The translations under genes were made by a program, and so were the position numbers. The notes beneath the pieces were generated by a model that worked only from the letters and a program-made list of their open reading frames with translations, did not search any database and was not told the origin of the DNA. From Candidatus Daviesbacteria bacterium (GTDB taxonomy: Bacteria; Patescibacteriota; Microgenomatia; Daviesbacterales; UBA10151), in NCBI GenBank assembly GCA_028715175.1, contig JAQUSJ010000003.1:1-54971 (forward strand): DNA of 54,971 nucleotides, read 5' to 3'. How positions within the stretch are numbered: position 1 is the stretch's first letter; each line of letters begins with the position of its first letter. This document shows positions 8,897-49,365 of this stretch, piece after piece.

Positions 8897-10783
8897 TTAC
8901 ATCCTTTCAGGCGCTTCAATGCAAAGCAAGTCTAGGCCGTTTTTCACAACTTGAGCTGAGGCTTGCGTCAAACGCAGAAGACTGTTCCTTCGTACTGAAT
9001 CCGGTTCATTAACGATACGTACTCTGTCGTACAAGGTAGTAAATAAATCAGCAGCACGGAAGATGTATTCTGCAAGTATATCAGGTCTGCTGGTTTGCGC
9101 GGCTCTAGTAATTGCTTCAGGGAATTTACTAAGATGTTTAATGAGGGCGTTTCCTGGCTGATTAGTCACTTCGATTGGTAAATCGTACCGTAATTCCATT
9201 TGTTCCTTCTGAGCTCGTTGCAGTAGGGCTCTCATTCTGGCATATGCATATTGGATATAAGGAGCGCTGCGTCCTGTGAAGGATAAAGCGCTGTCCCAGT
9301 CAAATTTAATCGATCTTTCTCTACCTTGTCCCAGATCAAAGAATACAACCGCCCCAACTCCTACTTGTCTGGCGATAGTTTCTTTTTCCTCTCTAGATAG
9401 ATCCCTGCTTAAATCATCAATTTTTTGTCTGGCTCTGTCAACAGCTTCAGTTAGCAAATCTTCTAAAAAAATCACTCTTCCGGCTCTGGTGGACATCTTT
9501 CCTTCTGGCAACCTGATCATGCCGAAATGAACATGTTCTGTTTGAGGACCTGTATTCCCCGTCATCATATCGAAAGTGGCAAAAATTTGTCGAAAATATC
9601 TTTGTTGATCTTCACCAACTACATAAATAATTCTGTGGGGATTAAACCAAGCGCAGCGCGCTACCAGTGTGGCTAAATCTCTGGTGGAGTATAAGCTTGT
9701 GCCGTCTGTTTTTTGAACTACTAATTTATCAAGGTTTTTCATAGATAAATCAACCACAATTGCGCCAGTTTCATCTATTGAGGCAATGTTTCTTTCTCTC
9801 ATATATTCTAAAACACGTGGAATCATAGGTATATAGAACGATTCTCCCAGCATATATTCATACCGGGATCCGAGTACATCATATACTCTTTGGAATTCAG
9901 CTAAGCTTTTTTGGGTAGCCCACTTTAAAAGTTCAATTGCTCTTTCGTCTCCAGATTCCAATCTTTGAAACCATCTTCTACCTTCTCGTTCCAAAGCTGT
10001 TTCCACATCCTCGTTTGCATCTAAACCCGATCTTTCTCGTTCGGCGATTTTTTCTTTCTCTACTTCCTCATGAATACGAACATAGAGTTTATATAGACCT
10101 TTGACCGGATCAGTGCCCTCACTTAATTCTTCATAATCATCTGCCCATAGTTCATGAGCTCTTGCCAACATACCGAATTGAGTTCCCCAATCGCCTAAAT
10201 GATTATCACGAATAACTTTATAACCGATGGCTCTGTTTATTCTGGCAAGCGATTCGCCGATTATCGTTGATCTTAAATGGCCGATACTCATGTATTTGGC
10301 TACGTTAGGGGATGAGCAGTCAATTACCACTGTTTCACCTTCTCCGATGTTTTGTTCACCATAGTGGTCTTGATATGTTTCGACTTCAGAGATGGCTTGA
10401 TTTCCGAATATATGCATATTAAGCAGGAAATTAAGATATCCTTTTTGGGCGATAGCTTCTTGAATAGTTGGCGGATTGGGATCTGAATTAAAACCCTCAG
10501 CCAACTCTTGAGCAATTTGCGCAGGACTTTTTCTTAATCTTCCTGCCATTTCATGACAAATTACGGTTAAATCAGCTGCTACATTAGGAGATGGTTCGGT
10601 TGCCCGCATGCCAGCCTCGGCCAAAACAGGATTAAGCCCGACAAGATGAGATATTAAATCTCTTTGTGTAGCAGTCCAAATATATTGGTTACTTCGAGGC
10701 ATATTTAAAAGATCCGGTTTAGTAATTGGGATATTACTCTCGGACAAAACAGGGACAGGAATACCTAAATATTGTTCGGTCAT
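8897..10783 (-). CDS. argS: Arginyl-tRNA synthetase
   Basis: The class I HIGH region reads SSPNVAKYMSIGHLRSTIIG, with an anticodon-binding C-terminus. The start was moved to the ATG at 10783-10781, which forms an ATGA overlap with the arcA stop. Confidence 0.9.
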   Translation of the reverse strand: MTEQYLGIPVPVLSESNIPITKPDLLNMPRSNQYIWTATQRDLISHLVGLNPVLAEAGMRATEPSPNVAADLTVICHEMAGRLRKSPAQIAQELAEGFNSDPNPPTIQEAIAQKGYLNFLLNMHIFGNQAISEVETYQDHYGEQNIGEGETVVIDCSSPNVAKYMSIGHLRSTIIGESLARINRAIGYKVIRDNHLGDWGTQFGMLARAHELWADDYEELSEGTDPVKGLYKLYVRIHEEVEKEKIAERERSGLDANEDVETALEREGRRWFQRLESGDERAIELLKWATQKSLAEFQRVYDVLGSRYEYMLGESFYIPMIPRVLEYMRERNIASIDETGAIVVDLSMKNLDKLVVQKTDGTSLYSTRDLATLVARCAWFNPHRIIYVVGEDQQRYFRQIFATFDMMTGNTGPQTEHVHFGMIRLPEGKMSTRAGRVIFLEDLLTEAVDRARQKIDDLSRDLSREEKETIARQVGVGAVVFFDLGQGRERSIKFDWDSALSFTGRSAPYIQYAYARMRALLQRAQKEQMELRYDLPIEVTNQPGNALIKHLSKFPEAITRAAQTSRPDILAEYIFRAADLFTTLYDRVRIVNEPDSVRRNSLLRLTQASAQVVKNGLDLLCIEAPERM

Positions 10784-21150: not shown

Positions 21151-23400
21151 ATGAAAAGATTAGTGCTTGTAGACGGTAATGCCCTGCTTCATCGGGCATA
21201 TCATGCCACTCCTCCTTTTACTACTTCCAAGGGAGAGTTAGTTAATGCTGTTTTTGGCTTTTCTTCCATGATTTTAAAGGTTATTTCTGAACTTCATCCT
21301 GAGTATTTGGCTGTGGCCTGGGATGAAAAAGGGCCAACTTTCAGGCACCAGGCTTATACCCAATATAAAGCCACCCGGGGGCCTGCGGATGAAGGTTTAT
21401 CCAACCAATACAAAAGGGTTCATGAAGTAGTCCGGGCTTTTAATATTCCGGAATTTAAAGTTTCCGGGTACGAAGCAGATGATTTGATTGGGACTTTAGC
21501 TTTGCAGGCACAAAAAGAGAAGGATTTAGAAATTGTCATTGTGACGGGGGATCGGGATATCATGCAGCTTATTGATAAAAAGATTAAAGTATTTATGCCC
21601 AAAAAGACTCTTTCTGATGTGGGGCTTTATGGGGTAGAGGAGTTTATGGTTAAATACGGGTTTTTTCCTAAACAACTTACGGATTATAAGGGTTTGGCAG
21701 GAGATGCATCAGATAATATTCCCGGAGTAGCAGGGATTGGGGATGTTACAGCCACTAAATTAATTCACCAATTTGGTTCTATTGAAGAAATTTACAACCC
21801 TAAAAATTTAAAAACTCTTCCGGAAAGAACGCAAACACTGCTATCAGAAGGTGCAGAATCTGCGGTGATGAGTAAAAAATTGGCTATGCTAGACACAAAA
21901 GCACCTATCAAATTAAATCTTAAAGCTTGTGTAATGCATGATTTTGATAAGGAAAAGGTGGTTAAACTGTTTGAGGAATTAGAGTTTAAAAGTTTGATTG
22001 CCAGGTTACCCGAAGACGCTCGGGGTCCTGTCAGCTCGATATCCCGCCGTGCATCCTCGCTGGACGCTGCGGCTACGCGTCGGGATGCCCTTCTCGCTGC
22101 CACCCCTCGCGTGGCTACTTCTGACTTCGCCATCTCTCTTGATAACTTTGTTGCACCTATATTAGAAAAAATGTCTAAAACAGGTGTTTTAATAGATTTG
22201 AAGTTTTTAAGTAAGTTTGGTAAGGAACTAAAAGCTAAATTAGCCAAACTCGAAAAAGATATTTACTCAAAAGTGGGACATCAGTGTAATCTGAACAGCC
22301 CGAAACAATTATCGCAAGTGCTTTTTGATGAACTAAAATTACCGGTGGTCAGGAAAACTAAAACCGGCCGCTCAACCGATGAAGAGACTTTGCAAGAGTT
22401 ATCTTCCGCCCATCCTGTTGTGCCGTTCCTCCTCCAATACAGGCAGCTGTTTAAGCTGGTTTCAACATATATTGATAGCCTGCCAAAATTTGTTGGGCCG
22501 GATGGCAGAATCCACTCTACTTTTAATGTAGAGGGAGCTGCTACCGGCAGACTATCTTCAAAAGATCCTAATTTGCAAAACATTCCGGTTAAAGGTTCGG
22601 CAGGGGGAGAAATAAGGAAAGCGTTCGTGGCGCCCAAAGGCAAGATTTTATTGGGAGCTGATTATTCACAAATTGAGCTTAGAATAATGGCGCATCTGGC
22701 AGATGACCCGGGGCTAAAGAAAGCTTTTGAGCAAAGTTTGGATATCCACGGCGCCACTGCCTCAAGAATTTTTGGAGTACCAGTGGATAAAGTTACCAGG
22801 CAGCAGAGAATGGTAGCTAAAACCATGAATTTTGCCACGCTTTACGGGCAAGGCCCCCATGCTCTTTCCCGCCAGTTGGGAGTGAAATATGAGGTGGCGC
22901 GTCAATATATTGAAGAATATTTTGAGCAGTTTCCCAAAGTCAGGGAGTGGATGCAAAAAACTTTGGCTTTTGGTTATGAAAATGGTTACATTGAAACTTT
23001 ATGGGGGAGGAAAAGATATATTCCGGAGCTGCGAGCCGAAAATAGAATGATTAAATCAGCAGGTGAGCGGGCTGCTGTTAATCATCCTGTTCAAGGAACT
23101 GCCGCAGACATGATTAAAAAGGCAATGGTGGAAATAGAGAAAGAGCTATCAGCTATCAGCTATCAGCTGTCAGAAAGTCTGAAAGCTGACAAGTCGCCAA
23201 AGGCGACTGATACTGAAAGCTGCCGACTTATTCTCCAGGTTCATGATGAGCTACTTTTTGAATGCAACCCCAAACGTGTTAATGAAGTAGCAAGAATGGT
23301 CAAGGAGAAAATGGAGAATGCCTTAAAACTTTCTGTGCCGGTTTTGGTTGATCTAAAAACAGGGAAGAACTGGGGAGAAATGAAGCCCCTTAGAATTTGA
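21151..23400 (+). CDS. polA: DNA polymerase I: 5'-nuclease plus polymerase domains, no 3'-5' exonuclease domain
   Basis: The N-terminus LVDGNALLHRAYHA and GDASDNIPGV mark the 5'-nuclease. RLSSKDPNLQNIP, ADYSQIELRI and LQVHDELLFE are polymerase motifs A to C. Two repeat-derived inserts are present. Confidence 0.9.
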   Translation: MKRLVLVDGNALLHRAYHATPPFTTSKGELVNAVFGFSSMILKVISELHPEYLAVAWDEKGPTFRHQAYTQYKATRGPADEGLSNQYKRVHEVVRAFNIPEFKVSGYEADDLIGTLALQAQKEKDLEIVIVTGDRDIMQLIDKKIKVFMPKKTLSDVGLYGVEEFMVKYGFFPKQLTDYKGLAGDASDNIPGVAGIGDVTATKLIHQFGSIEEIYNPKNLKTLPERTQTLLSEGAESAVMSKKLAMLDTKAPIKLNLKACVMHDFDKEKVVKLFEELEFKSLIARLPEDARGPVSSISRRASSLDAAATRRDALLAATPRVATSDFAISLDNFVAPILEKMSKTGVLIDLKFLSKFGKELKAKLAKLEKDIYSKVGHQCNLNSPKQLSQVLFDELKLPVVRKTKTGRSTDEETLQELSSAHPVVPFLLQYRQLFKLVSTYIDSLPKFVGPDGRIHSTFNVEGAATGRLSSKDPNLQNIPVKGSAGGEIRKAFVAPKGKILLGADYSQIELRIMAHLADDPGLKKAFEQSLDIHGATASRIFGVPVDKVTRQQRMVAKTMNFATLYGQGPHALSRQLGVKYEVARQYIEEYFEQFPKVREWMQKTLAFGYENGYIETLWGRKRYIPELRAENRMIKSAGERAAVNHPVQGTAADMIKKAMVEIEKELSAISYQLSESLKADKSPKATDTESCRLILQVHDELLFECNPKRVNEVARMVKEKMENALKLSVPVLVDLKTGKNWGEMKPLRI

Positions 23401-26683: not shown

Positions 26684-26764
26684 ACTTTTGTCTTCAAGAG
26701 AGGGGTTTTAAAACCCCTCTCTTGGGACAGAGAATGCAGAGATTTAGTTAGTGAGGTAGTCAAG

Positions 26765-28988: not shown

Positions 28989-30224
28989 ATGAAAGCGGCC
29001 CTTGTTCATGATTATTTAAAAGAATATGGCGGGGCAGAAAGAGTCCTGGAGGTTTTACATGAGATTTTCCCGGATGCTCCTGTTTATACTGCCTATTACA
29101 ATCCTGAAAGCCTGGGAGAAAACGGTAAAAGATTTAATCCGCCAGCTGGCGGATGGGATATCAGGACTTCCTGGTTTCAAAAATTCCCTTTTGCCAACCG
29201 GTTACTTTCCCCATTCCGCATATTTGGGCCAATGATGTTTGAAAGTTTTGATCTTTCAGAATATGATTTGGTGATTTCTTCCTCATCAGCTACTCATTTG
29301 GCCAAAGCAGTGATTACCAAACCGGAGACTTTGCATATAAGTTACATTCACACACCACCCAGGTTTTTATATGGTTATGTCACCTCTTTTAACTACAAAA
29401 AACACTGGTGGACCAGAATTGGGGGAGAAATAATAAATCACTTTATGAGGATCTATGATTTTGAAGTTTCCCAGAGGCCGGATATTTTGGTAGCTAATTC
29501 CAGGAATGTCCAGGCCAGAATAAAGAAATTTTATCGCAGAGACAGTGTGGTTATTTACCCGCCGGTAGATGTAGCAGCGATCAGTCGTCAGTCGTCAGTC
29601 GTCAGACAATCTGAAAGCAGAAAGCTGAAGGCTGATAGCTATTATCTCGTTTTAAGTAGATTAGTAAGAGGAAAGGGAGTGGAGGTAGTGGTAGAGGCTT
29701 GTGGCAAATTAGGATTACCGCTAAAGGTAGCTGGTACAGGCCCTGAATTGAATAATCTTAAAGATCTTGCTACCAACTACCCGCTTCGCAGTGAGGCGAG
29801 CCAGCTACCAGCTACCAATTTTCTAGGTTGGGTGACAGATGAAGAAAGGGTGAAGCTATTATCAAATGCCAAAGCTTTGATTGTGGCATCAGAAGATGAG
29901 GATTTTGGTATTACTTCAATTGAGGCTCAAGCTGTAGGGACTCCGGTGATCGCTCCTGCCTCCGGAGGTTTCTTGGAAACAGTAATTGATGGCCCGCCTA
30001 CGCATAAAACTTCGGCAGGGCAAGGTAAAACCGGTATTTTGTATGGCGGAGCGGGAATGGTCAATGTTGAGAATTTAGTCGGGGCATTGCAAAAATTTGA
30101 TGCTTCTAAATTTGATCCAGAGGACTGTCGCATGAATGCTGAAAGATTCTCTAAAGAAAGATTTAAAAAAGAAATTTTGGAATTGGTAGAAAAGAATTTG
30201 ACAATAGCGGGTAGTATAGGATAG
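28989..30224 (+). CDS. Glycosyltransferase family 4 (GT-B)
   Basis: EDEDFGITSIEAQAVGTPVIA is the E-x7-E motif. It contains three repeat-derived inserts. Confidence 0.8.
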   Translation: MKAALVHDYLKEYGGAERVLEVLHEIFPDAPVYTAYYNPESLGENGKRFNPPAGGWDIRTSWFQKFPFANRLLSPFRIFGPMMFESFDLSEYDLVISSSSATHLAKAVITKPETLHISYIHTPPRFLYGYVTSFNYKKHWWTRIGGEIINHFMRIYDFEVSQRPDILVANSRNVQARIKKFYRRDSVVIYPPVDVAAISRQSSVVRQSESRKLKADSYYLVLSRLVRGKGVEVVVEACGKLGLPLKVAGTGPELNNLKDLATNYPLRSEASQLPATNFLGWVTDEERVKLLSNAKALIVASEDEDFGITSIEAQAVGTPVIAPASGGFLETVIDGPPTHKTSAGQGKTGILYGGAGMVNVENLVGALQKFDASKFDPEDCRMNAERFSKERFKKEILELVEKNLTIAGSIG

Positions 30225-34956: not shown

Positions 34957-35901
34957 ATGCCAGAGTTACCAGAAGTGGAAACTATAAAGTTAGGGTTAGA
35001 GAAGAGAATTATTGGGTTAAAAATCCAAAAAATCCAGATTTTATCCCCAAAATCTTTTATTGGAAATCCTAATTTAGCCCAGGGTCAAATTGTACTCAAA
35101 ATCTGGAGAAAAGGTAAGATATTAGGAGTGGATCTGAGTAGCTGTCAGTCTTCAGCTATCAGCTATCAGACTAAAAGCAAAAAAAGTCTGACGACTGACG
35201 ACCGACAGCTGACGACTATTCTATTTCATCTAAAAATGACAGGTCAATTAATATATGAAGACGGCAAGAGAATGATAGGTGGTCATCCGACAGAGGATAT
35301 GTTAGGCAAGATGCCAAATCCACATACCAGGGTAATTTTTTCTTTTTCCGATGGGTCGCATTTGTATTTTAATGACCAGAGGAAGTTTGGTTGGGTAAGA
35401 GTTAGTGATAAGCAAAGCTTGCGATCTGTCGATCTTAGGGGAAAAGTGACAAGTGACAAGTTATTTAAAAATTTAGGGCCGGAGCCACTGGAGAAAGAAT
35501 TTACGTGGCAAGCACTAAAACAGAACCTTTTAAAACACCGTCGTATGCCTGTGAAAGTGGCGATTATGGATCAATCTGTGCTTTCCGGCGTGGGCAATAT
35601 CTATTCTAATGAGGCCTGTTTCAATGCTAAAATTGATCCGCGCAAAAAAGTGGGAGATATGAAAGATAGGGAATTTAAGGCACTACACGATGGGATAATT
35701 AAAGCACTCAAGGATGGGATAGCGCACGGAGGTTCAACCAGAGCACATTTTGTGGATCCTGAAGGGCATAAGGGTTATTTTTTGGATTATGCCAAGGTTT
35801 ATGGTAAAGGAGGTTATCTTTGCCAAGGCTGCAAAGGTAAAGTCAAAAAAATTACTCTGGGAGGCCGCGGCACATATTTTTGCCCCAAATGCCAAAAATG
35901 A
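34957..35901 (+). CDS. mutM: Formamidopyrimidine-DNA glycosylase
   Basis: N-terminal MPELPEVE, an H2TH region, and a C-terminal zinc finger CQGCKGKVKKITLGGRGTYFCPKCQ. A repeat insert lies at 35137-35218. Confidence 0.9.
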   Translation: MPELPEVETIKLGLEKRIIGLKIQKIQILSPKSFIGNPNLAQGQIVLKIWRKGKILGVDLSSCQSSAISYQTKSKKSLTTDDRQLTTILFHLKMTGQLIYEDGKRMIGGHPTEDMLGKMPNPHTRVIFSFSDGSHLYFNDQRKFGWVRVSDKQSLRSVDLRGKVTSDKLFKNLGPEPLEKEFTWQALKQNLLKHRRMPVKVAIMDQSVLSGVGNIYSNEACFNAKIDPRKKVGDMKDREFKALHDGIIKALKDGIAHGGSTRAHFVDPEGHKGYFLDYAKVYGKGGYLCQGCKGKVKKITLGGRGTYFCPKCQK

Positions 35902-35944: not shown

Positions 35945-37315
35945 ATGAGTGAAAAACCAACATTTGCCTCGGTAATTGCAAACCGGGGGTTTTTAAATCT
36001 TTGGATTAATCAAATTTTAGTTCAACTGTCTTTTAATTCCCTAAATTTTGCCCTGATCCTTTGGGTTTTTAAGTTAACAGATTCTAACACTGCTGTATCT
36101 GCTTTGCTTTTTTCAATTTACCTGCCGGCAGTAATTTTGGGTTTATTTGCAGGTGTTTTGGTAGATATTATTGACCGGCGTAAAATTATCATGGTGATTA
36201 ATTTTTTCTTGGGCTTATCTTTTTTTAGTCTGATTTTTTTAAAAACTTCTCTGCCGGCCATTTTGGTAATTACTTTTTTTGTTAATGCCTTAGGCCAATT
36301 TTATGCTTTGGCCGAAGCCTCAGCTATTCCACTTGTAGTTTTGAAAAATCAACTAATTACCGCCAACTCCATTTTTTCCGTCACCCTTTATTCCGCATTC
36401 CTGGTGGGGTTTGGTCTGTCAGGGCCACTTCTTAATCATTTAGGCATCAACTGGGTATTCGGATTGGAAGGAGCGGCTTTAGCTGTGGCCTTTTTATTAT
36501 CTTTGAAATTTCCTTCTATTAAGTCTTTGCCTGATATACAAGGACAAAGGCTGATTCGTGCCCTTTCGGAAAAGAAATATGGCAGAATTTGGGAGATTGG
36601 ACTAATTGAGATTTTGGATACTATTCGCCTCATTAGAGGGAAACTTCCAGTTTTAACATCAATAATAATTTTGGCAGGAGTACAAATGGGGATCGGGATT
36701 GTGGCAGTTTTAGTCCCGGGCTTTTTGGAAAAATCCCTTCATATTAAAGCTACTGATGCCACATATGTTTTGGTTATTCCTTTAGGGGTGGGGATTGTGA
36801 TTGGCGGGCTGATTTTAGGTAGATTTGGCAATAGACTGATGAAAAGAAAATTAGTGGGATGGTCAATTTTGTTTGCCGGGCTATTGTCTTTTATTGTAGG
36901 TATTGCCCCAATCATTTCACCTGCCATTCGCTATCTGGGTTATCCCAGACCACAGCCATTTTTCTACCAACCATCTTTAAGCCAAGTGTTGATGGTAGGA
37001 TCATTTTTGCTGGGCATTGCTGTAATTTCAATTTTAGTCCCATCGCAGACAGTTTTACAGCAAAACACTTCTGAAAAAGATCGGGCTAAGGTATTTTCAG
37101 TATTGGGTGTGGCTATGTACGGGCTATCACTGCTTCCGATTTTACTCTCCGGAGTTTTGGCAGATGTTTTTGGGACCGGGCCGATTTTTATCGGACTTGG
37201 TGTAATAATCATATTGATGGGACTGTTTGGGTTAAAGCCCTCTCTCTTTTTCAGAAAGAGAGAGTTGTCTTATCGGGTCAGAGAATTTTTAGGGTTAGGA
37301 CATTGGGAGAATTAG
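35945..37315 (+). CDS. MFS transporter
   Basis: About 12 hydrophobic helices. The loop 2-3 motif is VDIIDRRKIIM. The start was chosen at MSEKPTF, because the tool ORF start at 35750 lies inside mutM. Confidence 0.75.
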   Translation: MSEKPTFASVIANRGFLNLWINQILVQLSFNSLNFALILWVFKLTDSNTAVSALLFSIYLPAVILGLFAGVLVDIIDRRKIIMVINFFLGLSFFSLIFLKTSLPAILVITFFVNALGQFYALAEASAIPLVVLKNQLITANSIFSVTLYSAFLVGFGLSGPLLNHLGINWVFGLEGAALAVAFLLSLKFPSIKSLPDIQGQRLIRALSEKKYGRIWEIGLIEILDTIRLIRGKLPVLTSIIILAGVQMGIGIVAVLVPGFLEKSLHIKATDATYVLVIPLGVGIVIGGLILGRFGNRLMKRKLVGWSILFAGLLSFIVGIAPIISPAIRYLGYPRPQPFFYQPSLSQVLMVGSFLLGIAVISILVPSQTVLQQNTSEKDRAKVFSVLGVAMYGLSLLPILLSGVLADVFGTGPIFIGLGVIIILMGLFGLKPSLFFRKRELSYRVREFLGLGHWEN

Positions 37316-37440
37316 ATGATAGAAGATAGAATGTAGAAGGTAGAATTTTGATAATAGAATATGGAAGATAGATTATTTCTGTCCATCTTCTATTTTCCAT
37401 CCTCAAATATCCATCATCCATTTTCTACAATCTATCGTCG
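37315..37440. repeat. Empty hairpin of the GATAGAAG/ATGGAAG palindromic family, related to the arms flanking the four-helix-bundle gene
   Basis: The left arm 37315-37372 and right arm 37382-37440 are inverted. The reverse complement of the right arm is about 80% identical by eye to 23399-23460. Confidence 0.7.
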
Positions 37441-40076: not shown

Positions 40077-40100
40077 ATCCGCCAGAGGGCGGATTTTTTT
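40077..40100 (+). terminator. Intrinsic terminator
   Basis: ATCCGCC and GGCGGAT form the stem with loop AGAG, followed by a T7 run. Confidence 0.8.
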
Positions 40101-40165
40101 AAAAAAGATTCTGGACAAGTCCTTCGATCCCGAGGTACTCAGGACCGAGGGGCCAGAATGACATT

Positions 40166-41111: not shown

Positions 41112-42218
41112 ATGATGGGGAGACTGGTTCTGTCCGATGGGACAGTTTTTTTAGGGGAAAGTTTCGGGAAAGAGGATACCACCTCAGGGGAGGTGGTTTT
41201 TAATACCGGAATGGCAGGCTACCCCGAATCTCTGACAGACCCATCTTATTTCGGGCAAATTCTGGTTTTAACCTACCCCTTGCAAGGCAATTATGGGGTT
41301 CCGGAGAGTAAGTTTTGGGAATCAGGGAAAATTCAGGTTAAGGGACTAATTGTCCAAAATTATATTGATCACCCATCACATTTTGAAAGCCGGAAAACTT
41401 TGGGAGATTGGCTTAAGGAACAAGGAATACCTGCTATACAAGGAATTGATACCAGAGAGCTGACCAGGAAGTTAAGGGAACATGGAGTGATGTTGGGGAA
41501 GATAGTCGTCAGCTATCAGCCATCAGTCGTCAGAGAAGACATAATTGGGATTTATGATCCTAACAAAGAAAATATTTTGCCTTATGTAAGTACTAAGAAA
41601 GTTGAAGTCTATGGTGAAGGCAGAAAAAATATAGTTCTAATTGATTGTGGAGCAAAGGAAAATATTATCAGGAGTTTAGTAAAGAGAGGCGTAAGAGTGA
41701 CAAGAGTGCCTTGGGACTTTAATCCGCTGACATCAAAAATAGATTCTTCGCTAGTCGCTCAGAATGACAGGGGGGGTGGGCTGGATTTTGACGGAGTGCT
41801 GGTTTCAAATGGGCCGGGTGATCCGAAACAGGCAAAGGATACTATAAAAATTGTCAAACAGCTTCTAGAAGCAAATATTCCGACATTTGGTATTTGTTTA
41901 GGCAGCCAGATTTTAGCGTTAGCTGCAGGCGGAGAAACCTACAAATTAAAATTTGGCCACAGAGGTCAAAATCAGCCAGTCATGGACCAATTTAATAAAA
42001 AGGCTGTGATAACCAGTCAGAATCACGGATTTGCAGTTGATATGAAATCAATGGATAAAGATTGGAAGGAATGGTTTGTTAACTTAAACGACGGGACAAA
42101 TGAAGGAATCAGGCATAAAAGTAAACCGTTTTTGGCAGTGCAGTTTCACCCGGAGGCAAACCCGGGTCCGATTGAGGGAGGATATTTGTTTGATGAGTTT
42201 CTAAAATATGTCAAATAA
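41112..42218 (+). CDS. carA: Carbamoyl-phosphate synthase small (glutaminase) subunit
   Basis: The N-terminus LSDGTVFLGESFG, the GATase triad region FGICLGSQ, and QFHPE. Confidence 0.9.
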   Translation: MMGRLVLSDGTVFLGESFGKEDTTSGEVVFNTGMAGYPESLTDPSYFGQILVLTYPLQGNYGVPESKFWESGKIQVKGLIVQNYIDHPSHFESRKTLGDWLKEQGIPAIQGIDTRELTRKLREHGVMLGKIVVSYQPSVVREDIIGIYDPNKENILPYVSTKKVEVYGEGRKNIVLIDCGAKENIIRSLVKRGVRVTRVPWDFNPLTSKIDSSLVAQNDRGGGLDFDGVLVSNGPGDPKQAKDTIKIVKQLLEANIPTFGICLGSQILALAAGGETYKLKFGHRGQNQPVMDQFNKKAVITSQNHGFAVDMKSMDKDWKEWFVNLNDGTNEGIRHKSKPFLAVQFHPEANPGPIEGGYLFDEFLKYVK

Positions 42219-45200
42219 GTTAAGAAAGGTTTTAGTTTTGGGTTCAGGGGCGCTAAAAATAGGCGAGGCAGGAGAATTTGATTACTCCGGTTCACAAGCC
42301 TTAAAAGCTTTAAAAGAAGAAGGAGTGGAGGCTATTTTAATCAATCCCAACATTGCCACAATTCAAACTTCGAAAAGTTTGGCAAAAAAGATTTATTTTT
42401 TGCCTGTAACAGCGTATTTTGTCCAAAAAGTGATTGAAAAAGAAGCTCCTGACGGAATTTTTTTGAGCTTTGGAGGGCAAACTGCCCTAAATTGCGGTCT
42501 GGCGCTGGAGCGAAGAGGGCTATTTAAGAAATTACATTTACAAGTTTTAGGCTCTTCAGTACGAAGCATCCAAGTTACCGAAGACAGGGAATTATTTGCC
42601 AGGGAACTTTCCAAAATTGCTGTCAAAGCGCCGAAAGGAGGTTTTGCAAAAACCCTTGATGAGGCGCTAAAAATTGGCCAGAAATTAGGTTACCCCCTGC
42701 TAATCAGATCGGGATTTTCACTAGGAGGATTGGGTTCCGGGGTGGTTAACAACAAGGAGGAATTTATTAAAACGGTCTCTATTGCTTTGAAACAAGCTCC
42801 ACAAATTGCGATTGAGGAATACTTAAAACACTGGAAAGAGATTGAATATGAGGTAGTGCGGGATAAAGATGGCAATAAAATCACTGTTTGTAATATGGAA
42901 AATATGGATCCTTTGGGAATTCATACCGGTGAAAGTATTGTGGTAGCTCCTTCCCAAACCCTCAATAATTATCAGTATCACTTCCTCCGCAAGTTATCTT
43001 TGCAGGTAATTGAACATTTGGGGATTGTGGGTGAGTGCAATATCCAGTTTGCCTTAAATCCTAAAAATAATGATTACAGAGTTATTGAAGTTAACGCCAG
43101 GCTGTCACGATCTTCAGCTCTGGCTTCAAAAGCAACCGGATACCCGCTGGCTTATATCGCAGCCAAGCTGGCTTTGGGTTACAGTTTGCCTGAGATAAAA
43201 AATAACGTGACTCTCTCAACCAGCGCATTTTTTGAACCTAGCTTAGATTATATTGTAGTCAAGATTCCCAGATGGGATTTACAAAAATTTGTGGGGGCGA
43301 AAGAGATAATCGGTTCTGAAATGAAAAGCGTGGGAGAGGTTATGGCAATCGGGCGAAGCTTTCCAGAAGTTTTACAAAAAGCCATCAGAATGCTGGAAAC
43401 AGGTCAGGATGGTTTATTGGGAAACGATATAGATGATACCAAGCTTTTGCCTACAACAGAGCGGCTTTTTGTTGTGGCCCAAAGATTTGCCAGGGGGGAG
43501 CAGATAGAAGATATTTATAAGGCAACAGGCATTGATCCCTGGTTTCTTTATCAAATACGGGAAATGGTAACCTTTGAGAAGAAACTATTAAATTGTCATT
43601 CTGAGGCGAAGCCGAAGAATATATCTACGGAATTATATCCTTCGCTAACGCTCAGGATGACAAAGAAGGTGATGAGTGAAGCCAAGAAGTTGGGTTTCTC
43701 GGATAAATTATTAGCTAAAGCATTTGGAATCTCTGAGGGTGGAATAAGAAGGTTTAGGAAAAAACACGGTATAGTGCCGAGAGTAAAGCACATAGATACT
43801 TTGGCTGCCGAATATCCGGCCAAGACGAATTATCTTTATTTGACTTATCATGGAAATGAAACAGAGGATAATAAGATAAGAGTAACTAGTGATGAGTCTA
43901 AAATACAAAAGACTCTTCACTCTTATCCTAGTTCCTCTTATCCTAAAAAGGCTATTGTTTTAGGATCAGGTCCTTACAGAATTGGTTCATCTGTTGAATT
44001 TGATTGGTGCTCTGTTACGGCTGCGGAAACTTTGCGATCAAAGGGACTTCAAACGATTATTATCAATTGCAACCCGGAGACCGTTTCAACTGACTACGAT
44101 TGTGCAGACAAATTATATTTTGAGGAGTTAACCTTTGAGCGGGTCAGTGATATTTATGAAATCGAACAATCTGCAAGTTTGGTTTTGGGTTTTGGCGGCC
44201 AGGTGCCTAATAATCTGGCAATGAATTGTTTCCGGGCAGATTACAAAATCCTGGGGACTTCACCTGAAAATATAGACAGGGCAGAAGACAGAAACAAATT
44301 TTCCAAACTTTTGGATAAATTAAACATCGAACAAGCGTCGTGGCAGAGCTTGAAACGTTTAGATGATGCTTTAAAGTTTGCCAGAAAAATCGGTTATCCG
44401 GTTTTAATAAGACCTTCGTATGTTTTATCAGGATCAGCGATGAATGTTGCATATTCCAGCACTGATCTTAAAAAATATCTTAAGAGCGCTTCAGATGTGT
44501 CTTCGGAGCATCCGGTAGTAATTTCCAAATTTGTAGAAGGAGCAAAGGAGATTGAGATTGATGGTGTCGGACAAAACGGAAAACTTTTAATTTATGCCAT
44601 ATCTGAGCATGTAGAGAATGCAGGAGTGCATTCAGGCGACGCTACGATCGTACTTCCTCCCCAAAAACTATACCTGAAAACTGTCAGAATGGTAAAAAAT
44701 GCCACCAAAAAGATTGTTGAAACATTAAGCATTAATGGTCCGTTTAATATCCAATTTTTAGCAAAAGCAAATAAAATTATGGTGATCGAGCTAAACCTTA
44801 GAGCCTCGCGCTCTTTCCCGTTTGTCTCAAAAGTGACCGGGTTTAATTTTGTAGAAATGGCAACTAAAGTGATGCTTGGAGAAGTTCTTTCCGGCGATTT
44901 TAATACCATTGATTTGGACTATGTTGGGGTGAAAGCACCCCAATTTTCTTTTAGCCGGATTAAGGGTGCTGACCCCAGGTTGCGGGTAGAGATGTCCTCA
45001 ACAGGGGAAGTGGCTTGTTTCGGAGACGATCTGGAAGAAGCCTATCTTAAAGCAATCCTGGCAACAGGATTTAAGATGCCGGAGAGGAGTGTTTTCCTGA
45101 CCATTGGCGGAGAAAAAAACAAGCTTGATTTGCTGGTATCTGCTAAGGAACTTTTCCATTTGGGTTTTAAAATCTATGCCACGGAACATACCTCTGAATT

Positions 45201-45489: not shown

Positions 45490-45523
45490 TTAGATTTTTT
45501 GCGGGAAAAATGCGATAATCAAA

Positions 45524-45609
45524 ATAGCTATCAGTCATCAGTCATCAGTCTTCAGCTATCAGACTTAAAATTAAAGTCTGACGACTGAAAGCTGACAGCT
45601 GATAGCTAT
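45524..45609. repeat. Prototype heptamer-palindrome element (intergenic copy)
   Basis: ATAGCTATCAGTCATCAGTCATCAGTCTTCAGCTATCAGACT, then loop TAAAATTAA, then AGTCTGACGACTGAAAGCTGACAGCTGATAGCTAT. The arms are built from CAGCTAT/CAGTCRT 7-mers. Confidence 0.85.
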
Positions 45610-45613
45610 AATC

Positions 45614-47595: not shown

Positions 47596-49365
47596 ATGCT
47601 ATTTTCTAAATTAGCGGAATACTTTGAAAAATTGGAACAAACTTCTTCCAGACTTACTTTAATTGATATTCTCTGTGATTTATTTAAAGAAGTAAAAGCA
47701 GAGGAGGTTAGTAAAGTTTGCTATTTAATCCAGGGTCGAGTGGCTCCTTTTTATGAACCGATAGAGATCGGCATGGCAGAGCGTACAGTTGCTGCCAGCA
47801 TAGCCCGGGCATATGGAGTGAAGCGGGAAGACGTTCTTGAGGAATATGGTAAGGTTGGTGATTTAGGGTTGGTGGCAGAGCAGATGACCATTTGTCATTC
47901 TGGTAAGCGAAGCGCATCCATAATCGATTCTGGACAAGCCAGAATGACAGTTGCAGAGGTTTTTAAGACATTAAAAGAAATTGCTCAAATTTCAGGGGTT
48001 GGGACTGTGGAGAAAAAACAAGGTCTGTTGGTAGGTCTTTTGCAAAAAGTAGATTCTGTTTCAGCTAAACATCTGGTCAGAATTCCCCTCGGGGTATCAA
48101 GACTCGGGATTGGGGACCCGACAATTTTGGATGCTTTTGCCAAATTAAAATTGGGGGATAGATCCAAACGTAAACTTTTGGAAGGGGCATATAACCGGGT
48201 TTCTGATTTAGGTTTGATTGGGGAAACTTTATGGAAAGGTGGACTTGTCGCGGTTGAAAAACTGCAAGTCCGGGTGGGAAGACCAATACGGTCCCAGCTT
48301 GCAGAAAGGTTGCCAAACCCGGAAAAAGTCATAGAAAAAATGGGCGAGGTGAATGTACAAAGAAAGCTGGACGGATTCCGTGTTCAAATCCACAAAGATG
48401 GAGAAGCAGTCAGGCTTTTTTCGCGGAATTTGGAGGAAACAACAGCAATGTTTCCGGAGATTGTAGAAGGGACTACGGTGCAGATTAAAGCCAAAACTGC
48501 AATCTTAGACTGTGAGGCAATTGGTTTTAACCCTTTGTCTGATGAATTTTTGCCTTTTCAGGAAACTACCCAAAGACGTAGAAAATACGGCATTTCTGAA
48601 ATGGCAAAAAAGATCCCCCTGAAAGCTTTTTGTTTTGATATTTTGTATAAAAATAACAAATCTCTGATTAATTTACCTCTTCACGAAAGACTAAAAGAGC
48701 TGGAAAGTATTGCCAAACAGGACGACACGATTATTATTGAAAAGGGCGAAACTGTAAAAGACGGAAAAAAACTGCAAATACTTTTGGATGATGCTATTTC
48801 CAAAGGTTTGGAAGGGGTTGTTTGCAAAAGACTGGATTCAAAATATGAGGCAGGGGCCAGAAATTTTAACTGGGTTAAACTGAAGAGACATTCTGCAGGG
48901 GAGCTAGAGGATACCATTGACTGCGTGATTTTAGGTTACATTTTTGGCAAGGGAAAAAGATCCGGGTTCGGGGCCGGGTCTTTGCTTGTGGGTGTTTACG
49001 ATGAGTCGCAAGATGAATTTGTGACAGTTTCCAAAATTGGCACCGGTTTAACAGATGAGGAATGGAGAGAAATACACAAAAGAGCGGATAAAATTAAGGT
49101 TTTGCACAAACCTGCCAGGGTGAATTCTCTTTTGACCCCCAGTGTTTGGATTGAACCCTCGATTGTGATTGAAGTTTTGGCAGATGAGATTACCCGTTCT
49201 CCTGTACATACTGCCGGAAAAAAGGGTCCGCCAGCTGGCGGAGAACCTGGCTATGCCCTAAGATTTCCCCGGCTGGTGAAATTCCGCGAAGCTGACAAAA
49301 AAGCAGAGGATGCCACAACAGTGAAAGAGTTGATTGAGATGTATAAACAGCAGTTTAAAAAGTAA
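47596..49365 (+). CDS. lig: ATP-dependent DNA ligase (three-domain, archaeal/eukaryotic Lig1-like)
   Basis: Motif I is KLDGFRVQIH, with the adenylated Lys. Also present are EGVVCK, NWVKLK, and an OB domain with LRFPRLVKFR. Confidence 0.9.
   Translation: MLFSKLAEYFEKLEQTSSRLTLIDILCDLFKEVKAEEVSKVCYLIQGRVAPFYEPIEIGMAERTVAASIARAYGVKREDVLEEYGKVGDLGLVAEQMTICHSGKRSASIIDSGQARMTVAEVFKTLKEIAQISGVGTVEKKQGLLVGLLQKVDSVSAKHLVRIPLGVSRLGIGDPTILDAFAKLKLGDRSKRKLLEGAYNRVSDLGLIGETLWKGGLVAVEKLQVRVGRPIRSQLAERLPNPEKVIEKMGEVNVQRKLDGFRVQIHKDGEAVRLFSRNLEETTAMFPEIVEGTTVQIKAKTAILDCEAIGFNPLSDEFLPFQETTQRRRKYGISEMAKKIPLKAFCFDILYKNNKSLINLPLHERLKELESIAKQDDTIIIEKGETVKDGKKLQILLDDAISKGLEGVVCKRLDSKYEAGARNFNWVKLKRHSAGELEDTIDCVILGYIFGKGKRSGFGAGSLLVGVYDESQDEFVTVSKIGTGLTDEEWREIHKRADKIKVLHKPARVNSLLTPSVWIEPSIVIEVLADEITRSPVHTAGKKGPPAGGEPGYALRFPRLVKFREADKKAEDATTVKELIEMYKQQFKK

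Follow-up and report, generated by a model that had tools for sequence, protein, structure and literature searches.

The 54,971-nt stretch analysed here (the window) is the forward strand of contig JAQUSJ010000003.1 from a Candidatus Daviesbacteria bacterium (GCA_028715175.1). It is housekeeping chromosome with a G+C content of 39.6%, carrying genes for arginine and pyrimidine biosynthesis, aminoacyl-tRNA synthetases, FtsH, PolA and an ATP-dependent ligase. The nearest homologues of its proteins come from Candidatus Daviesbacteria, within the Patescibacteria or Candidate Phyla Radiation (CPR). Five loci in the window carry a short hairpin-forming repeat built from 7-nt units: one lies between carB and a Fic gene, and the others lie inside polA, a glycosyltransferase gene (GT4), mutM and carA. 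A sequence-only reading of the window had named these loci and compared the repeat with the palindromic elements of Rickettsia. Both an nhmmer profile, made from 103 unique, independent copies from public metagenomes (family consensus AATAGCTATCAGTCTTCAGCTTTCAGCTTTCAGACTTTTTAATTTGTCTGACGACTGACGACTGATGACTGATGACTATT), and a regular-expression scan confirmed the repeat at all five. The profile matched these five loci and no others in the window. A scan for at least three tandem CAGNNNN units returned positions 23150, 29575, 35146, 41510 and 45532 plus one chance match, compared with 0.2 in shuffled sequence.

A heptamer-armed hairpin between carB and Fic

The intergenic prototype (45523..45610, + strand; nhmmer E=2e-19) lies between the stop codon of carB (45489) and the start of Fic (45614). 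Over the 86 nt from 45524 to 45609 its units read ATAGCTA TCAGTCA TCAGTCA TCAGTCT TCAGCTA TCAGACT TAAAATTAA AGTCTGA CGACTGA AAGCTGA CAGCTGA TAGCTAT, with all four CTGA units unbroken. It folds better than shuffled versions of itself, both as DNA (dG -19.7, z -5.6) and as RNA (dG -38.6, z -7.7). Its earlier description as a near-perfect hairpin was nevertheless overstated, as the arms are only 78% complementary and the consensus triplets are systematically non-complementary.

Near-identical genomes differ in the presence or absence of copies. The sister contig L120 (GCA_028712705.1) is syntenic with the window and 91% identical to it at the nucleotide level across carA and carB. Its carB|Fic spacer measures 37 nt against 124 nt in the window, and the alignment of the two shows one clean 84-nt gap that takes in nearly the whole element. 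The prototype was not called in a terminator scan and has no U-tract, so it is not terminator-like; the right flank of family copies is weakly T-rich (43–49%).

Two further features of this spacer concern the start of Fic. The right end of the prototype with its flank (45585-45612) contains a sigma-70-like consensus match (CTGAAA, 16 nt, TATAAT) that ends 2 nt before the Fic start. The insertion also removes a GAG-rich stretch found before the ATG in the sister contig.

Anatomy and distribution of the family

Members of the family follow one plan, in which a 5′ arm of (TCAGNNN)n and a 3′ arm of (NNNCTGA)n are bounded by the ends aTAGYY...RRCTAt. A terminal aTAGYYN opens the element, four TCAGNNN units as a rule lead to a TCAGAC-loop-GTCTGA core, and three or four NNNCTGA units, again as a rule, lead on to a terminal NRRCTAt. 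Of 105 copies, 65 have four TCAG units on the left and 63 have four CTGA units on the right; element length varies between 47 and 96 bp, the mode lying near 75 bp. The left end is conserved as aaTAG[C/T][T/C]N and the right end as NRRCTAtt. Within the 5′ aTAG, the T is found in 63%, the A in 78% and the G in 86%, and the motif is mirrored by CTA at the 3′ end; GTAG is present in the mutM and GT4 copies.

Pairing is confined to the TCAG/CTGA cores, the centre and the ends, and the unit triplets are Watson–Crick complementary in only 10–29% of copies. Units are heterogeneous (CTT, CTA, TCT, TCA, CTG and others) and set in inverted arms, rather than forming a homogeneous direct tandem array of one heptamer. 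Left-arm triplets favour CTT/CTA/TCT and the reverse-complemented right arm favours TCG/TCA. Because the triplets differ systematically between the arms, the element has polarity and is not a true palindrome; a single strand of it would form 4-bp helices parted by small internal loops. At unrelated loci, more than 100 copies have this ordered asymmetry in common; descent from one source accounts for that better than independent growth at each site.

JGI metagenomes yielded at least 120 stretches that match the core pattern TCAGCTNTCAGAC...TCTGANNACTGA, and GTDB species genomes at least 102; the genome JACPDA01 alone has at least 13 matches to this narrow pattern. Among the matches listed, the named genomes are almost all Daviesbacteria, with a few metagenome-assembled genomes (MAGs) of Gottesmanbacteria or Omnitrophota. 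Some family-bearing third-party-annotation MAGs are titled ‘uncultured Gammaproteobacteria’ (CAZDFU01, CAZDEH01, CAYQAW01, CAYNFQ01 and others; L431-L497). At least two of them, the assemblies of L124 and L125, encode a Daviesbacteria-like MutM in Daviesbacteria-like synteny, and the organism labels look wrong.

By context, 89 copies are non-coding and 15 coding, with 21 left unassigned, so that, where the context could be classified, about 85% of copies are intergenic and open reading frames (ORFs) hold about 15%. The genes neighbouring intergenic copies are tandem in 48 cases, convergent in 12 and divergent in 5. With orientation read from the triplet asymmetry, which does define one, intergenic copies show no bias relative to transcription (21:27). 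All copies in the window share one orientation; we gave this little weight as a signal, as the core pattern is identical on both strands.

In-frame copies in conserved genes

None of the four ORF-internal copies breaks its reading frame, and both the ORFs and the Pfam domains of the host genes (DNA_pol_A, Glycos_transf_1, Fapy_DNA_glyco/H2TH and CPSase_sm_chain/GATase) bear out the earlier claim that conserved genes carry them. The accompanying argument that any multiple of three 7-nt units preserves the frame did not hold, because the real inserts are not multiples of 21 nt.

The mutM gene (ORF 34957-35901) carries a full copy at 35137..35220 (+ strand; nhmmer E=8e-20), which encodes roughly SSCQSSAISYQTKSKKSLTTDDRQLTT. 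Seven other lineages have orthologous copies and the site is empty in L130, which gave a DNA comparison set of eight orthologous copies and one empty site. In an AlphaFold2 model of the window MutM (mean predicted local distance difference test score, pLDDT, 71), residues 61-87 occupy a β-hairpin tip, between strands 55-60 and 86-91, with a pLDDT of about 54. In a sequence search against solved Fpg structures, the alignment breaks at the insert.

In polA (ORF 21151-23400) the copy spans 23141..23232 (+ strand; nhmmer E=5e-10), between the HPVQGTAAD helix and the QVHDE motif; more closely, it follows HPVQGTAAD...EIxKEL and precedes LILQVHDELLFE. The GT4 copy (29573..29643, + strand; ORF 28989-30224; nhmmer E=2e-16) sits in the linker that joins the two Rossmann halves and has an RNA fold z of -4.5. 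The carA site (41501..41551, + strand; ORF 41112-42218) lies in the CPSase–GATase linker. It matches the family, as had been claimed, at E=9e-8 / 2e-5, but to half of the nhmmer model: it comprises the left arm only (ATAGTCG TCAGCTA TCAGCCA TCAGTCG TCAGAG) and forms no hairpin (z -0.7 in the fold test). The GT4 and carA sites are thus variable linkers between Pfam domains and, together with the predicted MutM hairpin tip, they agree with the surface-loop bias suggested for the inserts. Coding copies in related metagenomes also occur in dnaX, gyrA, prfA, tsaD and a membrane protein, which extends and supports the proposed in-frame colonisation.

Stop codons and constraint on the nucleotide sequence

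The two arms differ in what they impose on a reading frame. The (TCAGNNN)n arm has no obligatory stop in any frame, whereas three consecutive NNNCTGA units place TGA in all three, so an intact element closes all six frames. Coding copies must therefore be edited or truncated, and in each of the three window copies that retain a 3′ arm, the in-frame CTGA unit is broken. In GT4, CAGA at 29618-29621 stands in place of CTGA and removes the in-frame TGA at 29619-29621. In mutM, the unit at 35199-35205 is CGACCGA and not CGACTGA, so that CCGA at 35202-35205 removes the TGA at 35203-35205. In polA, a small nested palindrome, AGTCGCCAAAGGCGACT (23192-23208), splits the right arm where an in-frame CTGA would fall. 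Among the mutM orthologues, the in-frame CTGA reads CCGA, CAGA or CTCT. In coding copies from metagenomes the TCAG-sense arm is long, and no more than two CTGA units are present. Stop avoidance of this kind is the pattern predicted by translation through the insert; from the frame and the stop avoidance we infer that in-gene elements would be translated as insertions of 12–28 residues rich in Ser, Gln, Thr, Asp and Lys. A predicted insert-junction peptide from the window is ...GVDLSSCQSSAISYQTK.

We then asked how far the DNA itself is conserved within the eight mutM orthologues, by comparing the third positions of codons that agree in the amino acid and in their first two bases. The proportion of pairs that differed was 0.041 in the TCAG/CTGA cores (196 comparisons), 0.295 at variable positions of the insert (325) and 0.470 in the rest of mutM (4863), an approximately 11-fold effect between core and other synonymous sites among phylogenetically non-independent pairs. 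Codons that all or nearly all lineages keep unchanged include TCA (Ser), CAG (Gln), ATC (Ile) and CTG (Leu). Conservation of synonymous core bases indicates that a DNA or RNA motif is maintained, and not the peptide alone; the peptide shows no conservation apart from that motif, which speaks for the earlier reading. Outside the cores, orthologues switch whole units, for example from CTA to TCG, which counts as three substitutions but one unit replacement. As whole units switch while the cores stay, the arrays evolve by unit-level turnover. Folding is still stronger than in shuffled sequence for most coding orthologues, at z -2.2 to -5.2; one has a z of -1.4. The constancy of the cores could reflect concerted evolution with other copies, or some interaction at the DNA or RNA level.

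All of these sequences derive from metagenome assemblies, and artefacts of assembly or binning, such as chimeric joins at low-complexity repeats, might in principle create repeats of this kind. Orthologous copies with the same frame and stop-avoiding substitutions, however, recur in independent NCBI, JGI, ENA and Logan assemblies, and the genes flanking the copies are collinear. We consider an artefactual origin vanishingly improbable.

Turnover at shared insertion sites

Many other palindromic families use the same insertion sites, which are hot spots, and the occupants turn over fast. The MutM site is empty in 72 of 120 close homologues (60–78% identity), which read ...ILGxDL-[D/G/TG]-xxT-LLFHLKMSGQ.... 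It is filled in the remaining 48, about 11 of them by this family and the rest by at least six other recognisable insert families. About ten other sites in the same alignment hold far fewer inserts than this turn. A neighbour-joining tree of MutM is star-like, and gains and losses are not countable from it. In the sister contig, the mutM loop is occupied by a GTCATTCTGGAG...CTCCAGGATGAC palindrome instead of the heptamer family. An ‘AGTAG’ preceding the other-family palindrome there was considered as a remnant of the heptamer family, but only one codon is truly shared.

A similar picture emerges at the other genes. The polA site is empty in P0128, P0131, P0133, P0136, P0137 and P0139 and in all distant PolA homologues, is taken by other families in P0124, P0126, P0130 and P0132, and has an orthologous copy in L125. 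The GT4 copy is identical in L120 and degenerate in L124, and a shorter, different sequence stands in its place in L122 and L125. At the carA site the sister contig has a (TTCAAAG)x4 array; across 120 homologues the linker is hypervariable, with many short heptamer-derived peptides. The window and its sister also differ at two carB regions, the MFS|recF spacer and several mini-inserts. Empty sites in relatives, which favour the earlier interpretation, are found at carB|Fic, in MutM and in several PolA homologues. Repeat-derived inserts were verified in six genes of the window (polA, GT4, mutM, carA, carB and DNA ligase), short of the ten or more housekeeping genes that had been proposed.

Another reading is that in-gene copies persist because they serve a function, with dispersal secondary: they might provide flexible or disordered peptide segments at specific loops, or form mRNA hairpins by which translation or message stability is adjusted. 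The mutM copy has been retained in at least eight lineages that differ at 47% of synonymous sites, its core bases are conserved beyond what the peptide requires, and the folding of most coding orthologues would suit such a role. The same loop is nevertheless empty in most close homologues and filled by at least seven unrelated families in others, including a different one in the closest relative. Most copies are intergenic and unbiased in orientation, and the host proteins are functionally unrelated. On balance we regard usefulness as very unlikely to explain the in-gene copies.

Origin and spread

In our reading, to which we assign a probability of about 0.7, the five loci belong to a palindromic repeat family of Candidatus Daviesbacteria that is dispersed and non-autonomous. 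New copies would arise as whole units at non-homologous sites. The most likely route would be hairpin-dependent mobilisation in trans that leaves no target duplication, as proposed for repetitive extragenic palindromic (REP) elements and their REP-associated tyrosine transposases (RAYTs) and for single-strand transposition of the IS200/IS605 type. Most copies lie between genes. To survive inside a gene, a copy would need a length that keeps the frame and an in-frame CTGA that has been mutated, interrupted or lost, and it would have to sit where the protein tolerates it, in a surface turn or an interdomain linker. After insertion, as the orthologues show, the arrays keep changing by gain, loss and replacement of whole units, and 7-nt slippage would shape the arms. 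A trans-mobilised repeat is favoured by the combination of REP-like features (no duplication, dependence on a hairpin, a short conserved end motif and a place at gene 3′ ends) with in-frame copies like those of Rickettsia.

Several results weigh against this interpretation. The window contains no transposase. No parent element with split arms was found in 0.89 Mb of related DNA, where the sole arm pair 300–4000 bp apart is an ordinary element. Direct repeats of 2–7 nt at the boundaries of 31 elements were no commoner than in shuffled pairings, giving no sign of target-site duplication. The window copies are not near-identical to one another and so bear no direct sign of very recent transposition. 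The empty site in the sister contig could be a precise deletion instead of the ancestral state; an exact search of metagenome contigs for the conserved carB|Fic flank, made to polarise the event, returned 0 matches. Finally, whole units differ between orthologous arrays, and the same sites can hold other heptamer arrays, so local slippage clearly contributes. As for a RAYT gene, none was seen in the window, in the L120-L130 gene tables or near the copies examined, a search that covered contigs and no whole genome.

The last of the points against mobilisation invites the alternative that elements grew in place, through 7-nt slippage and intrastrand template switching at hairpin-prone sites, and that likeness between loci reflects convergence. 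The whole-unit replacement from CTA-type to TCG-type among mutM orthologues fits this view. So does the carA linker, where (TTCAAAG)x4 in the sister faces TCAGNNN units in the window and many homologues carry short arrays. A TAGAAGA-type heptamer hairpin also exists in the window, heptamer-armed hairpins with other cores occur in many phyla, and heptamers are reported to be the most abundant long simple-repeat class in prokaryotes (summarised in PMC4679880). Independent growth in place would not, however, yield more than 100 copies at non-homologous loci with the same termini, modal unit number, central core and triplet asymmetry, and the prototype is present or absent as a near-complete unit between 91%-identical genomes. 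We judge it unlikely as the source of the family, and return to the dispersed repeat in placing these elements among known systems.

Relation to known repeats

Rickettsia palindromic elements (RPEs) are about 100–150 bp long, lie between genes and in frame in unrelated housekeeping genes, and have no known transposase (Ogata et al. 2000, 2002, as summarised in PMC10969869). By its behaviour, and judged from descriptions of RPEs, the Daviesbacteria family appears to be a coding palindromic repeat akin to them and to intragenic REPs. Like RPEs, it forms dispersed palindromes, in many copies within one lineage of small genome. Its copies are both intergenic and in frame, with empty orthologous sites, and they add peptides at fold-compatible positions (surface loops or linkers in MutM, GT4 and carA), again with no known transposase. 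Unlike RPEs, it belongs to a different phylum and not to Rickettsiales, measures about 60–90 bp rather than about 100–150 bp, and has 7-nt units, an invariant TCAG core, non-complementary triplets and obligatory TGA stops in the 3′ arm.

Intragenic REPs tagged with GTAG or CGTC have been described earlier, notably in replication and repair genes (Di Nocera et al. 2013, PMC3733652), and mobilisation in trans has been proposed or left open for both REPs and RPEs (PMC3733652; PMC10969869). REPs and REPINs resemble the present family in being small palindromes found mostly downstream of genes, between tandem or convergent ORFs, in lacking target duplication and in having a 5′ (A/G)TAG motif. Some REPs are intragenic in replication or repair genes, as are the copies here in polA, mutM, dnaX and gyrA. 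REPs differ in that they are 20–40 bp long with a fully paired stem of 5–13 bp and an unpaired tag at one end only. The TAG of the Daviesbacteria element is mirrored by CTA, and the element is periodic and two to three times longer. With its range of 47–96 bp and unpaired triplets, it is not a continuous-stem palindrome of 20–40 bp.

MITEs (miniature transposable elements with inverted repeats) such as Correia, ERIC and Nezha are likewise short, non-autonomous and multi-copy, have inverted-repeat ends and occasionally lie in frame in ORFs. The present family differs in lacking target-site duplications and a parent insertion sequence with the same ends, on the 31 elements and 0.89 Mb examined. 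The short tandemly repeated repetitive (STRR) sequences of cyanobacteria are heptamer tandem repeats. They and the TAACTGA repeats share with our family a 7-nt unit (TAACTGA being of NNNCTGA form), a mostly intergenic location and all-frame stops that limit the orientation in ORFs. They differ in being homogeneous direct arrays, in place of heterogeneous units in two inverted arms that form one discrete element with defined termini. TAACTGA repeats occur in Beggiatoaceae, Cyanobacteria and Bacteroidetes (PMC4679880).

Within this company the Daviesbacteria family is unusual in its 7-nt periodicity with non-complementary arms, its nucleotide conservation inside ORFs and its fast multi-family turnover at fixed loops. 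Literature searches of incomplete coverage found no prior description of coding palindromes in the CPR. The family extends to the CPR the notion of selfish DNA inside protein-coding genes, best known from Rickettsia; genomes of about 1 Mb there carry several palindromic families in essential genes (polA, mutM, carA/B, dnaX, gyrA, prfA and tsaD). The loops offer a natural experiment on the tolerance of proteins to insertion: the same loop can be empty, hold this family or hold one of at least six others, and occupants turn over between genomes that are 9% diverged. The 7-nt architecture provides internal controls, namely a stop-free and a stop-forcing arm, and core and variable synonymous positions. 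Maintenance at the nucleotide level inside ORFs calls for a mechanism. In practical terms, such inserts add to protein lengths, break up HMM alignments and can lead the annotation and phylogenomics of CPR genomes astray.

Heptamer hairpins in other lineages

A relaxed pattern, (TCAGNNN)x2-TCAGA...TCTGA-NNNCTGA, matched at least 119 loci in very diverse phyla, where a rough chance estimate is about 2. The CTGA-first pattern also matches genome contigs; both polarity counts are lower bounds and not comparable with each other. In viral contigs the TCAG-first form occurs in 37 stretches against 5–8 for swapped or permuted cores, which suggests enrichment. Heptamer-armed hairpins are thus general and apparently little described, and they are related to the heptamer-repeat excess and TAACTGA arrays reported before (PMC4679880). 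One could construct a broader scenario, in which the Daviesbacteria family is one branch of a widespread, undescribed class of 7-nt-periodic hairpins. What is conserved in them would be a TCAG/CTGA motif of fixed polarity recurring every 7 nt, more than base pairing as such, and some common cellular or mobile machinery would recognise it. CPR families would then exchange at fixed loops of essential proteins by site-directed replacement, in place of random insertion and selection. We find this scenario unlikely. A β-turn tolerates insertion at only one or two codons, so selection and a high influx may suffice to explain the shared sites, although targeted replacement could also act there.

Hairpins with arms of tandem 7-nt units, in which the TCAG or CTGA core is constant and the triplets are specific to the lineage, were seen in Acidobacteriota, Gemmatimonadota, Nostoc, Alphaproteobacteria, Chloroflexota, Planctomycetota and others (L001-L119, L251-L370), often adjoining the 3′ ends of tRNA genes.

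Other repeats in the window

A GTCATTCTGG...CCAGAATGAC palindromic family, translated as ‘HSGAKRSEAIES...LQDDK’, lies in frame in the ligase gene (47894-47948; ORF 47596-49365) and in carB, and is also intergenic at about 40090-40162. In the sister contig it occurs at 10183-10260, 18625, 18915 and 7638, including the mutM loop that is held by the heptamer family in the window. The MFS|recF spacer (37313-37430) contains a second heptamer hairpin, with TAGAAGA/TAGAATG... units facing ...TCTTCTA/TCCATCA units; in the sister an unrelated palindrome, GAGCAGCTCGTCGAAG...CTTCGCTGCTC, takes the place of the whole spacer.

polA carries a second insert, rich in GC (22021-22131; RGPVSSISRRASSLDAAATRRDALLAATPRVATSDFA), between the 5′–3′ exonuclease and polymerase domains. 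It belongs to a different repeat family and shows strong self-complementarity, with an RNA dG of about -49 over 157 nt. Another selfish insert in polA is found in L124 (1-2201), where precomputed Pfam assignments mark an intein with a LAGLIDADG domain in a PolA orthologue of 1140 amino acids.

Smaller in-frame inserts that are absent or different in the sister contig include DSSLVAQNDR, a half palindrome, in carA (41727-41777), KQSLRSVDL in mutM (35407-35442), and PLRSEAS and GPPTHKTSAGQ in GT4 (29778-29807 and 29988-30029). Two segments of carB (43380-43470 and 43860-43950) are replaced relative to the sister. GT4 also contains, at 29139-29152, a perfect 14-nt palindrome, CCGCCAGCTGGCGG, which encodes PPAG(G) and is absent from the sister. 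In many CarA homologues the peptide ‘PPAGG’ turns up again at another hot spot (...NPLxSPPAGGFDG), and an insert in a PolA homologue resembles it; the sequence looks like a separate family of mini-palindromes.

The sole Rfam 15 match in the window at the gathering score, with none to the element itself, is a T-box leader at 175-389 (RF00230, 104 bits), upstream of the argininosuccinate synthase gene (427-1650). A perfect 30-nt palindrome, CAAGAGAGGGGTTTTAAAACCCCTCTCTTG, lies at 26695-26724, at the junction of two ORFs of unknown function.

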